From assembly GCA_964342415.1 (NCBI GenBank), contig CAYFFD010000002.1:125-64124 (forward strand): a stretch of 64,000 bases of DNA, given 5' to 3'. The translations under genes and the position numbers were made by a program. Below the pieces are notes generated by a model. It saw only the letters and a list, made by a program, of their open reading frames with translations. It was not told where the DNA came from and ran no database searches. Positions 47,224-52,406 of this stretch are shown here, piece after piece; position 1 is the first letter of the stretch; every line of letters starts with the position of its first letter. Origin of the DNA: Candidatus Woesearchaeota archaeon (lineage in GTDB: Archaea > Nanobdellota > Nanobdellia > Pacearchaeales > GW2011-AR1).

Positions 47224-48396
47224 TTAAAGTTTTTCATAAGTCTCTTTCCCTGTTTTCATATCTTTAATCTTAAACTTTTTTTTCTTTATTTCTTCTTTAC
47301 CAACAAAAATCACTTTGTTAATCTTGTAAGAATTTGCATATTCAAGTGCTTTAGAAGGCTTGCCATAAAACAAAACAGTGTTTTTTCCCTGTTTCCTCAT
47401 CTTTTGTACAAGGTTTATTGCTTTTTTATCTTGATTTAAGGAGATAATCAAAAATTTTTCTTTTTCTGTTTTTAATTTTGCAACTAAAGACAATCTTTCC
47501 AAGCCAAAAGAGATTCCTGTAGATTGAATCGCACTGATTCCTTTAATTTTTGGTTCTTTTTTTTGGTTTCCCTCATATAACCTGTAACTCCCTCCTGCAC
47601 AAATTGATTCTTTTGTATCTTTTACCCTCACTTCAAATACACTTCCGTTGTAATAACTTAAACCTCTTGCGAGAGAAGGCAAGAAAATCAATTTTACATT
47701 GTAAATTTTACATAAATTTTTTAATTCTTCAATATCAGAATATGATTTGTATTTTTTAAAATAATTTTCTGGTTTCTTAATAATTTGGAGAATTTTTTCT
47801 GTTTTGTCTTTTTTCAAATTTTTTTTAACTTGTTTTTCAGATAATTTATCAAGTTTGTCAATTTCCCTTAATACTTTTTCTTTATTTCTTATTTTTAATT
47901 CATCAAGTATTTCATTCAGCAATTTTCTATTATTAAAATAAATTATAATTTTTATTCCAAGTTTTTCAAAGATTTCATTAGCCAATGCCAAAATTTCTGC
48001 TTCATCCTTAATTGTACTTCCTACTATATCAACATCACATTGTGTAAACTGTCTTACTCTATTACTTTGAACAGGCTCATCTCTAAAAACTTCTCCGATT
48101 TGATATCTCTTATAAGGAATTTTTTTATTTTTTGCAATCCTTTTCAATTGAAATGTAAACTCGTATCTTAAAGCAAGCTTCCTCTTTCCTTTATCTTTTA
48201 ATTTAAAGATATCTGAAACAGCTTCATCATTTTGATTTTGTCCTCTAACAAATTCTTCGTATTCAATCATAGGAGTTTCCGCAGGTTCAAAACCATATTT
48301 CTCAAAAGTCTCCACTAGGATTTTTTTTATCTCCGTTCTTTTCAAAGCTTCTTCTCCTGTAAAATCATTGAATCCCTTAACTTTTTCTGTTTTCAT
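47224..48396 (-). CDS. hisS: histidyl-tRNA synthetase
   Basis: KGFNDFTGEEALKR, the class II motif-2-like FRDEPVQSNRVRQFTQCDVDIVG, GGSYRL, and a C-terminal anticodon-binding-like domain. Confidence 0.85.
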   Translation of the reverse strand: MKTEKVKGFNDFTGEEALKRTEIKKILVETFEKYGFEPAETPMIEYEEFVRGQNQNDEAVSDIFKLKDKGKRKLALRYEFTFQLKRIAKNKKIPYKRYQIGEVFRDEPVQSNRVRQFTQCDVDIVGSTIKDEAEILALANEIFEKLGIKIIIYFNNRKLLNEILDELKIRNKEKVLREIDKLDKLSEKQVKKNLKKDKTEKILQIIKKPENYFKKYKSYSDIEELKNLCKIYNVKLIFLPSLARGLSYYNGSVFEVRVKDTKESICAGGSYRLYEGNQKKEPKIKGISAIQSTGISFGLERLSLVAKLKTEKEKFLIISLNQDKKAINLVQKMRKQGKNTVLFYGKPSKALEYANSYKINKVIFVGKEEIKKKKFKIKDMKTGKETYEKL

Positions 48397-48806
48397 TTTA
48401 GTTTTTTATTCAGTTCAATTACTTTATTTTCAATTCTTTTAATAATCTCATCAATCTTTTTTTCGTTTCCATCAAAATCATCAGGAATTTTCCATTCAAC
48501 CACTTCTTGTAAATATCTTTTATCATATAAAAAAATATCTTTTGGAACATCATTGGCAACAACCACAATAAGATTTGTATTTTGTAAAAGAGGAACTGTA
48601 ATTGTTTCAGGTTTTTTGTTTATATTAATTCCAAATTTCTTCGCTAATTTTACTTGTGGAAGATAAAGAGGATAACTTCCTTTGAAAATTCCTGCACTTT
48701 TTATTTTTATGTTTTTGTTTTTATTATATTTCTTAAAAAATTGTTCAGCCACTTGGCTTCTAAATCTATTGTACTTACAAACAAATAATATATTTACTTT
48801 TTTCAT
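48393..48806 (-). CDS. low-molecular-weight phosphotyrosine phosphatase / ArsC-type CX5R(S) phosphatase
   Basis: ILFVCKYNRFRSQVAE P-loop and a later IPDDFDG acidic loop. 4-nt overlap with the hisS start. Confidence 0.75.
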   Translation of the reverse strand: MKKVNILFVCKYNRFRSQVAEQFFKKYNKNKNIKIKSAGIFKGSYPLYLPQVKLAKKFGININKKPETITVPLLQNTNLIVVVANDVPKDIFLYDKRYLQEVVEWKIPDDFDGNEKKIDEIIKRIENKVIELNKKLK

Positions 48807-50274: not shown

Positions 50275-50724
50275 TTAAGAACTGAAAGAAGTTGTTGTTG
50301 AACACAATTGCTCGTTTCCAGAGGAATCACTAAAGTAAACCGCAACCTCAACCTTGTTTGCATTTTCTATTCCTGTTGTAATGCTTGACTCTGTTTTTGC
50401 TGACAAAAGACCAATATTTCCTGAGACATCTTTGACGAAATTTGTTTCTCCCAAGTCATTAGTAAAGATTAATTTTATTCCTGCGATTTCATCTCCTCCT
50501 GCTCTTCTTTCAACAGTAACATCACAGACTCCCGGTGTTGTACATGTTAATTTTGTTGCCCTTACATCAACCTCCAAACATCTTGTTCCTAAATTAATCT
50601 TACCTTCTCCGCTTTCAACAACATCTCTTACAACGAAGAATATAATTCCCATTGCAACCATAACAAGAACAATCATAAGTAATGAGACTACAATATTCGA
50701 AATACCTTTTTTATCCCCCCTCAT
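50275..50724 (-). CDS. archaeal type IV pilin-like protein (class III signal peptide)
   Basis: MRGDKKGISNIVVSLLMIVLVMVAMGIIFFVV is a short basic leader, a KG/I cleavage context and a hydrophobic helix, as in archaellin/pilin N-termini. Confidence 0.6.
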   Translation of the reverse strand: MRGDKKGISNIVVSLLMIVLVMVAMGIIFFVVRDVVESGEGKINLGTRCLEVDVRATKLTCTTPGVCDVTVERRAGGDEIAGIKLIFTNDLGETNFVKDVSGNIGLLSAKTESSITTGIENANKVEVAVYFSDSSGNEQLCSTTTSFSS

Positions 50725-50779
50725 TATGTTTATATAAAAAGATAGTATATAAATATTTCTCTATGTTAAAACAATGTTT

Positions 50780-51988
50780 TCATTTGTTGAAAGAATCAAG
50801 AAGCAAAAAAAATTCTTTCTTGTCAATTACCTTGTCTGATTCAGAAAGGCCAATCTGCTCTGCGAATTTCCAAAATGCATCTGGTTTGTAGCCCTGTTTT
50901 TTTAGAGAGGCAAGTGTCGGAAGCTTCTTATCATTCCATCCAGAATATTTTCCTTCCTTAATTCCTTGCTTGAATTTCCTTGTAGATAGATCCATGTCTT
51001 TGAACTTAAACATTCCAAGAAAACCAGTCCAAGGCAGTTTTTTCCCAAGAGTTTTGTAAATCATCTCTTGCCTTTTTGCATTGTCCATATGATCTTTTGC
51101 CCTTATGATATGAGTTATTTTCATTTCAATGTCATCGACTGTAACAGCAAGATTCATCAAAGGCCAAACTCTGTATTTGCTTTTTTGCAAATAATGTTTT
51201 TTTGTATTTATTCTTGCCAAAGGGAAATCGCGCATTGCAGGATTTTTATCTTTCATATTTGACTTAAATCTTAAAACGGATTCACCTTGTTTGAAATTAT
51301 TTTTTGAATCAAAAGAAAGCATTTTTTTCCATCTTTCTAAATTTTCCTTAACATTATGATTTCTACAAGGACAATTAGTTTTAGTTTTCACATATTCCTC
51401 AAAAGCTTTCTGCGAGCATGTGCAAACGTAAACAGCTTTTTTTCTAAGAAGTTTTTCAGTATATTTGTAATAAAGATTCATCCTAGAGGATTGTATCACA
51501 ATTTCAGCGGCGTTTTCAAAAAGCCATTTTGAATCTTTCTCAATCATCTTGTAGGATAAAGGATAAATATTTTCTGGGTTTGTGTCCTCTATTCTCACAT
51601 AAAATTTTCCGCGATATTTTTTTACATAAAGGTATGACAAGCTTGCAGTCATTGCATGTCCCATATGTAAAGGTCCTGAAGCGCTAGGCGCAAAGCGCAT
51701 GATAACCTTTTTTCTCTTAACATTAGGAAGCTCTTCCAAACCCTCGCGCGTTTTCCTCTCAGAAACTTTATCTTTCAAGTTTTCAAATTCTTTTTTTTGT
51801 TTCTCAATTGAAAGAGAATTAACTTCTTTAACAATTTCCAAAACCTTTTTTGAATATTTTTTTACTTCGCTTTTTTTCAGACCTTCATTGAAAAGAGAAG
51901 AAATTACACTTCCAACTTTTGCTTTTCCATCATAAGAAACTGCATTTTTTAGTGCATATGCATGTGCCTTTTTTTCCAAGTTTTTCAT
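50780..51988 (-). CDS. gltX: glutamyl-tRNA synthetase catalytic core lacking the C-terminal anticodon-binding domains
   Basis: RFAPSASGPLHMGHAMTA (HIGH), LSTRK (KMSKS-like), and GWNDKKLPTLASLKKQGYKPDAFWKFAEQIGLSESDKVI (compare the GlnRS/GluRS WDDPR...RRRGY...IG segment). The ORF stops about 20 aa later at 402 aa. Confidence 0.8.
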   Translation of the reverse strand: MKNLEKKAHAYALKNAVSYDGKAKVGSVISSLFNEGLKKSEVKKYSKKVLEIVKEVNSLSIEKQKKEFENLKDKVSERKTREGLEELPNVKRKKVIMRFAPSASGPLHMGHAMTASLSYLYVKKYRGKFYVRIEDTNPENIYPLSYKMIEKDSKWLFENAAEIVIQSSRMNLYYKYTEKLLRKKAVYVCTCSQKAFEEYVKTKTNCPCRNHNVKENLERWKKMLSFDSKNNFKQGESVLRFKSNMKDKNPAMRDFPLARINTKKHYLQKSKYRVWPLMNLAVTVDDIEMKITHIIRAKDHMDNAKRQEMIYKTLGKKLPWTGFLGMFKFKDMDLSTRKFKQGIKEGKYSGWNDKKLPTLASLKKQGYKPDAFWKFAEQIGLSESDKVIDKKEFFLLLDSFNK

Positions 51989-51989
51989 C

Positions 51990-52406
51990 TTACTTCAAAG
52001 GCAAATAAGGTTTAATTGCTTTCCTTAATTGAGGATAAGTCCATTTTTTATTGAACTCTACTCTATCCATTTTCTTAAGACTAGGATTTTTATTTATAAT
52101 CTCAGGGAACTTTTTAATCAAAACTCCTAAAGAACCAGTAACATCAAAAACAATTATTTTTTTACCTTTTATATTATAATGCTCTTTTAATAATGGTTTG
52201 TGTTTTTTTCTTACAACAATAATTACATCTGCCCAATCAACATCTTCTTGATTAAAAGGATTTCTTAAAATTAACTTGGGTATTTTCCCATCACCAATCC
52301 CTCCATATTTTGTTCTGTATCCTTTATTTCTTAAATAAGATGCAAGATATTTACTTCGATTCAAACCCATAGTACAAACAGCTAAAACTTTTGGTTTTCT
52401 CTTCAT
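51990..52406 (-). CDS. CX5R(S) phosphatase-fold protein (LMW-PTP/Ssu72-like)
   Basis: VLAVCTMGLNRSKYLA P-loop near the N-terminus; 138 aa. It ends 1 nt before the gltX-like gene. Confidence 0.5.
   Translation of the reverse strand: MKRKPKVLAVCTMGLNRSKYLASYLRNKGYRTKYGGIGDGKIPKLILRNPFNQEDVDWADVIIVVRKKHKPLLKEHYNIKGKKIIVFDVTGSLGVLIKKFPEIINKNPSLKKMDRVEFNKKWTYPQLRKAIKPYLPLK

Follow-up and report, generated by a model that had tools for sequence, protein, structure and literature searches.

The window analyzed here, a single stretch of 64,000 nucleotides, carries on its reverse strand a gltX gene whose product is an archaeal-type glutamyl-tRNA synthetase (GluRS) that stops short of both C-terminal β-barrel anticodon-binding domains (Table 1). 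In a Pfam search, the class I (Glu/Gln) catalytic domain PF00749 was the sole domain found, with profile positions 1–297 of 314 covered by the protein; this region comprises the Rossmann fold, the CP insertion and most of the stem-contact fold. The NCBIfam model for archaeal GluRS, NF003169, was matched over positions 3–397 of 567 with 425 bits (cut-off, 516), and TIGR00463 was matched over positions 4–390 of 560 with 346.2 bits (cut-off, 401.75). Both equivalog cut-offs are missed because approximately 170 C-terminal model positions are missing, while the start of the matches at model position 3 or 4 indicates that the archaeal N-terminal extension is present. The β-barrel domains PF03950 and PF20974 are absent from the 402-aa protein and present in the full-length relative P0122 (558 aa).

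Within the part that is encoded, the residues expected of a working synthetase are retained. H108, G110 and H111 of the HMGH signature are invariant among 25 homologues, as are R98, D286 and R296, which correspond to Mth R100, D282 and R292 of the Glu-specific Arg/Asp/Arg network. Conservation among homologues extends to the four zinc cysteines and the LSTRK loop, and the catalytic apparatus of the 402-aa GluRS is intact. The N-terminal domain has the conserved motif AYALKNA..GKA..G.V, and the structure model places its helices at residues 2–18, 25–34, 39–58 and 61–74. The initial annotation, made from the letters and their translations, had described a GluRS core with an N-terminal extension, a HMGH motif and an LSTRK loop, a description that is borne out by Pfam, NCBIfam and the alignment to the crystal entry 3AII.

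Table 1. Features of the gltX locus and of the related pathway and tRNA genes; positions are those of the window unless a contig (C4, C7, C17) of the same genome is named.
Feature	Position	Strand	Basis or remark
gltX	50780..51988	(-)	archaeal-type GluRS, 402 aa, without both C-terminal β-barrel anticodon-binding domains
N-terminal four-helix domain, aa 1-86	51731..51988	(-)	alignment to 3AII residues 5-85
Class I (Glu/Gln) catalytic domain, aa 94-387	50828..51709	(-)	PF00749, E 6.7e-59
HIGH signature HMGH, aa 108-111	51656..51667	(-)	sequence motif
Zinc knuckle CTC-x14-CPC (C189, C191, C206, C208), CP insertion	51365..51424	(-)	aligned to 3AII CTC...CHC
KMSKS-equivalent loop LSTRK, aa 334-338	50975..50989	(-)	aligned to 3AII LSTSG and D. 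radiodurans GlnRS SKRK loop
TGA stop	50780..50782	(-)	right after ..LLDSFNK; stem-contact fold / proximal-barrel boundary
Spacer, 55 nt	50725..50779	(-)	AT-rich, TATA-like runs; between gltX stop and pilin-like gene
Pilin-like gene	50275..50724	(-)	class III signal peptide MRGDKKGIS and hydrophobic helix
138-aa gene	51990..52406	(-)	stop 1 nt before gltX start; no Pfam family
Small CX5R-type gene near hisS	48393..48806	(-)	LMW phosphatase, PF01451, 1.3e-12
GatE, short type, ~490 aa	C4:15664-17091		lacks positions 268-396 of the 622-position TIGR00134
GatB-type paralogue	C4:11510-12739		outside the window
tRNAGlu(UUC)	C7:3554-3626		
tRNAGlu(CUC)	C17:3898-4078		108-nt intron
tRNAGln(CUG)	C17:3409-3481		

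The point at which the ORF stops was located by comparison with 3AII, the ND-GluRS of M. thermautotrophicus. A phmmer search against the PDB aligned residues 5–395 of the query to residues 5–391 of 3AII, with query residues 5–86 on residues 5–85, the archaeal N-terminal extension. An AlphaFold2 model of the protein (mean pLDDT 84.9) has its final helix at residues 390–401, and a Foldseek search with this model returned 3AII as the best PDB match (rmsd 2.3 Å over 316 columns). The published domains of the M. thermautotrophicus enzyme are YQEY (1–85, disordered), Rossmann fold (86–170 and 288–331), CP (171–287), stem-contact fold (354–399), proximal barrel (400–408 and 500–552) and distal barrel (409–499), with one zinc bound by the CTC...CHC of 3AII (PMC2978374). 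From the alignment and these limits, the ORF therefore ends at the boundary between the stem-contact fold and the proximal barrel. Its end coincides with the last residues of the stem-contact fold, and both barrels are missing, including the counterparts of Arg403, Gln530 and Arg533, to which U35 was assigned in a docking model of the M. thermautotrophicus enzyme (PMC2978374). The initial claim that the ORF terminates where the anticodon-binding domains should begin is thus confirmed, with alignment to archaeal GluRS placing the truncation at this border.

We also sought a relationship between the N-terminal domain and the YqeY/GatB-tail family and rejected it, as Pfam, hhalign and Foldseek were all negative. 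The N-terminal 86 residues gave no match to PF02637 or PF09424 at E≤10 in Pfam, comparison of the domain with GatB and GatE of this genome by hhalign gave a probability below 1%, and a separate model of the N-terminal 90 residues found no PDB match at E≤0.001 in Foldseek. The name YqeY for this domain is taken solely from PMC2978374.

Downstream of gltX, a spacer of only 55 nt separates the stop codon from the pilin-like gene, as had been noted from the sequence, and there is no room for a remnant of the lost domains. The pilin-like gene, for which Pfam gives a weak Pilin_N match only, lies directly downstream of short gltX in at least nine related genomes as determined by phmmer on the flanks; the two genes form a conserved pair without an obvious functional link. 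It was considered as a displaced C-domain or partner of GluRS and rejected: although syntenic, it carries a class III signal peptide and shows no resemblance to the C-domain HMM described below. The 138-aa gene upstream was likewise rejected as a conserved partner, since it does not adjoin gltX in relatives and has no Pfam family. This upstream gene is one of two small CX5R-type genes in the region, of which the other, near hisS, is a clear LMW phosphatase.

The genome that contains this gltX comprises 516 kb in 38 contigs and is approximately 87% complete. PF00749 occurs at one locus in these 516 kb, with no GlnRS and no second GluRS; a second, full-length gltX was looked for and not found. 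Related genomes also have one GluRS locus each. Because the assembly is fragmented and incomplete, a homologous C-terminal anticodon-binding half could lie elsewhere in the genome, as in the split genes of Nanoarchaeum, and a split synthetase gene was among the explanations first put forward. PF03950, however, is absent from the genome even at E≤10. An order-specific C-domain HMM, generated from the C-terminal 150–170 residues of 11 full-length relatives and run with filters off against a six-frame translation of the genome, gave a best E of 1.3. In 17 short-form genomes (our own and 16 others), among them the single-contig G143, the 2-contig G004, G061, G094 and others of 2–6 contigs, the same HMM gave no hit at E≤1. 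Full-length controls scored from 3e-64 to 7e-72, and the HMM still detected the 58–73-residue remnants of two intermediate forms (5e-12 and 1e-7). The gap left by the ~87% completeness of our genome is covered because near-closed relatives also lack the C-domain. These searches indicate that no detached homologous C-domain exists, and we regard a split gene as extremely improbable.

The short form is not peculiar to this genome. Among 40 related genomes, approximately 15 carry short orthologues of 397–431 aa with 55–74% identity that terminate in the same ..FNK motif. Across dozens of genera of the order and over 100 clusters of metagenomic proteins, orthologues of approximately 400–415 aa (55–78% identity) share this end. 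A search of a protein collection yielded 3320 related clusters at E≤1e-30; the best 120 of these 3320, drawn from NCBI, ENA, JGI, Tara and Logan assemblies, are all 377–452 aa in length with PF00749 only. In a census of the order (301 genomes), the 150 best matches comprised 69 full-length proteins, defined as covering the query to at least position 545 of 558, and 81 proteins stopping near position 400. A short or intermediate GluRS is thereby found in at least 81 of the 301 genomes, and the type is consistent within genera.

The truncation of gltX is evidently real and not a matter of chance, given how many independent genomes share its end point. An error of sequencing or assembly, or decay into a pseudogene, is at odds with the identical end point in independent assemblies from many genera and sources and with the invariant catalytic residues; downstream there is no coding remnant of the C-domain, the 55-nt spacer being followed by a conserved gene. 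We give this explanation next to no credence, and the objection that an assembly error had shortened the ORF is not upheld. The survey of orthologues in related genomes, in which the same short end point recurs many times, does not make the ORF complete for its lineage either: in a full alignment, relatives keep the longer ancestral form. Of 240 high-quality genomes sampled elsewhere in the class (outside family f1), 234 have PF03950. Independent loss of the C-domain in the other 6 of 240 was considered and rejected, these cases being artefacts of a divergent full-length gene, contig-end cuts or the lack of a GluRS contig. Within the class sample examined, the domain-less GluRS is confined to this order.

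Proteins of intermediate length were found in other families of the order. Two of these, from G039 (468 aa) and G030 (483 aa), lack the distal barrel and retain a C-terminal tail whose only counterpart in full-length proteins is their final segment (..QFERFGFC..FWFxHK), corresponding to the second half of the proximal barrel; the census contains further intermediate forms of 460–500 aa. In a maximum-likelihood tree of the shared 400 residues, short and intermediate proteins form one clade (ultrafast bootstrap/SH-aLRT, 100/99) with a full-length protein as its sister, and the length label needs two changes on the tree. We propose that an ancestor in the order (NCBI: Candidatus Pacearchaeota) lost the distal β-barrel first and that the leftover piece of the proximal barrel disappeared later, so that the helical N-terminal domain, Rossmann core, zinc-bearing CP domain and stem-contact fold were retained.

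The gltX gene tree is at odds with the GTDB family labels. Short and full-length types both occur within family f1, intermediates occur in other families, and types are mixed within f1 and f4. This mixing of types despite monophyly of the short and intermediate proteins may point to horizontal replacement or to a long-lived gltX paralogy within the order. Only seven clade-diagnostic substitutions were found (F241, S243, A258, V284, E288, W320 and Y367), none of which is interpretable without a complex structure. The net charge of the shared 400 residues is approximately +27 in short forms versus +18 in full-length forms, values that are uncorrected for kinship and AT bias.

A catalytic core without an anticodon-binding domain is also the gross architecture of bacterial GluQRS (YadB), and one database record names a short form "Glutamyl-Q tRNA(Asp) synthetase". 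On that likeness, gltX could be a GluQRS-like paralogue with a non-translational role, for example glutamylation of a modified base, as the initial annotation had suggested among its alternatives. GluQRS models, however, score the protein at 124 bits (cut-off, 256) and 120 bits (cut-off, 276.7), compared to 425 bits for the archaeal GluRS model. Furthermore, gltX is the sole PF00749 gene and the only member of the GluRS family in the genome, short-form genomes have no other route to Glu-tRNA, and the tree places gltX inside the housekeeping GluRS clade as an orthologue of the full-length enzymes. The protein also keeps the N-terminal domain and the stem-contact fold, both of which YadB lacks. 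We therefore consider a GluQRS-like function very improbable, and of the explanations first offered it is the minimal GluRS that stands, as a real, conserved and sole GluRS.

GatE and the GatB-type paralogue are present in 40 of 41 genomes (our own and 40 relatives), whatever the type of GluRS. Since both are present and GlnRS is absent, the single GluRS must, as predicted from gene content, also make Glu-tRNAGln and therefore glutamylate both tRNAGlu and tRNAGln. As a separate observation, the GatE of this genome is of a short type that recurs in most of the 40 related genomes; the full type of 620–635 aa is found in three only.

Our assembly contains two tRNAGlu genes and a tRNAGln(CUG) gene (Table 1), and no tRNAGln(UUG) was found in it. 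The tRNAGlu and tRNAGln species have in common a U11-A24 pair, a 9-nt D-loop (AGNGGYCAA) and a 4-nt variable region, a combination that is unique among the tRNAs of the genome. This D-arm set is reminiscent of the "augmented D-helix" identity set known from E. coli tRNAGlu, which consists of U11-A24, U13-G22:A46 and the lack of residue 47 (PMC9976931). The same D-arm features are also found in relatives with a full-length GluRS, and are therefore pre-existing and permissive as opposed to a specific adaptation. In genomes with the short form, 15 of 17 tRNAGlu genes have G73 as the discriminator, and the 12:23 pair of tRNAGlu and tRNAGln is mostly A/U; in genomes with the full-length form, 9 of 10 tRNAGlu genes have A73, and the 12:23 pair of both tRNAs is mostly G/C. 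Both contrasts are raw, uncorrected for shared ancestry and AT bias, and serve as leads only.

Two further observations concern these tRNA genes. An intron of 81–150 nt is present in tRNAGlu(CUC) in at least seven related genomes (loci L055, L063, L065, L066, L089 and L093 and our own), with a conserved block ..CTCGATGAGAG..CTATGCATCTCAATGCAAC.. that suggests an intron-encoded functional element, e.g. a small guide RNA. Additionally, the tRNAGln(UUG) at locus L088 of a genome of the same genus (G001) is identical to the tRNAGlu(UUC) at locus L034 over positions 3–35 and 39–49, including the Glu-type GGCCAA D-loop. Differences between the two are confined to the first two pairs, anticodon region, T arm and position 73, and the L088 gene looks like a copy of tRNAGlu that was remoulded into tRNAGln.

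Taken together, the 402-aa protein is the organism's only GluRS, and it is probable that it is a functional, naturally minimized enzyme, which would be self-sufficient, non-discriminating and would not read the anticodon. Without the barrels, the protein would make no anticodon-loop contact of the kind seen in GlnRS and archaeal GluRS, and we therefore infer that tRNA selection proceeds via the acceptor end, the D-stem corner and the tRNA body. The CP domain would recognize the acceptor end, whereas the stem-contact fold would read the inner corner and D-stem. Selection would act on the distinctive body that is common to tRNAGlu and tRNAGln, with its U11-A24 pair, 9-nt D-loop and 4-nt variable region; separating tRNAGln from tRNAGlu would afterwards fall to GatDE. 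A precedent is a C-truncated GluRS of E. coli that, by the title of Dubois et al. (2009; Biochemistry 48:6012, pmid 19496540), is reportedly specific for tRNAGlu. A more basic surface and, conjecturally, the N-terminal domain may add affinity for tRNA; the YqeY domain of D. radiodurans GlnRS is an affinity enhancer in cis (PMC1865053). The anticodon is a major identity determinant in the GluRS and GlnRS systems that have been studied (PMC9976931), and an anticodon-blind GluRS would thus be unusual.

The main rival to this reading is a partner in trans. The short GluRS would then be a catalytic subunit, and a separate protein, either non-homologous or too diverged to be recognized, would supply tRNA or anticodon binding. 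Such a protein, if non-homologous, would be invisible to our homology searches, and there are precedents in Arc1p for yeast GluRS or, for tRNAGln, in GatDE within a transamidosome; GatE and GatB are both present here. The truncated E. coli enzyme of Dubois et al. is, by the same title, reportedly stimulated by its free distal domain. The locus, however, offers no candidate, as the sole conserved neighbor is the pilin-like protein with its signal peptide and the upstream gene is not syntenic. GatE is equally short in genomes with a full-length GluRS and hence does not co-vary with the truncation, and GatDE could help with tRNAGln only, not with tRNAGlu. We consider an unrecognized partner unlikely, whereas the split-gene, GluQRS-like and artefact explanations are essentially excluded.

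Returning to the self-sufficient GluRS, a broader claim would be that the whole Pacearchaeota-type clade decodes Glu codons and, by way of amidation, Gln codons with a single GluRS blind to the anticodon, so that identity lies wholly in the tRNA body and acceptor end. We hold this claim to be evenly balanced. If it is true, GatDE would separate Gln from Glu by A1-U72/A73, and changes to the acceptor end and anticodon alone could turn a copy of tRNAGlu into a tRNAGln, as the tRNAGln(UUG) of a relative hints.

GluRS and GlnRS are textbook cases of the anticodon as a major identity element, and in these enzymes tRNA binding is needed even for amino-acid activation. A natural, essential and clade-wide GluRS without the anticodon-binding module would indicate that the module can be dispensed with in vivo. 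The intermediate forms that persist provide a stepwise series, from the full-length protein through loss of the distal barrel to loss of both barrels. Two questions are opened: what share of Glu and Gln identity lies outside the anticodon, and how far synthetases can shrink in reduced genomes. If anticodon-blind, the enzyme would lend itself, as a natural class I scaffold, to orthogonal tRNA pairs or to use as an anticodon-tolerant orthogonal synthetase. For annotation, the short forms fall below the equivalog cut-offs and are variously named in NCBI, as "glutamate--tRNA ligase", as "... family protein" and once by the GluQRS name given above. Full-text searches of the literature found no description of an archaeal GluRS without its anticodon-binding domain, and a 2026 preprint covering 208 complete genomes from the phylum makes no mention of GluRS.

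The closest known system is the archaeal ND-GluRS (GlxRS-A, 3AII), with which the short GluRS has in common the N-terminal domain, the Rossmann core, the zinc-bearing CP domain and the stem-contact fold. The structural alignment gives 39% identity, the Glu-binding Arg/Asp network is kept, and the pathway context is the same, with GatDE present and GlnRS absent. Unlike 3AII, the short GluRS has no equivalents of residues 400–552, which form both barrels. Similar to GluQRS/YadB, it is a catalytic core of the GluRS family without an anticodon-binding domain. YadB, however, is a bacterial-type paralogue that exists beside a full GluRS and modifies queuosine-34 of tRNAAsp, whereas gltX is archaeal-type, present as the sole copy and orthologous to the housekeeping GluRS, and its product is approximately 100 aa longer owing to the N-terminal domain and the stem-contact fold.

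Synthetases are known to lose modules during genome reduction, as in insect endosymbionts and microsporidia. In contrast to those domain-reduced synthetases, the loss described here is defined, clade-wide and stepwise, and removes the complete anticodon-binding module. Lastly, the protein resembles the C-truncated E. coli GluRS engineered by Dubois et al. (2009), in which, again by title, the anticodon-binding part is removed and specificity for tRNAGlu can stay. That construct is laboratory-made and derives from a bacterial enzyme with a helical anticodon-binding domain, whereas the truncation in these archaea comes with no free domain and is natural and fixed in the clade.
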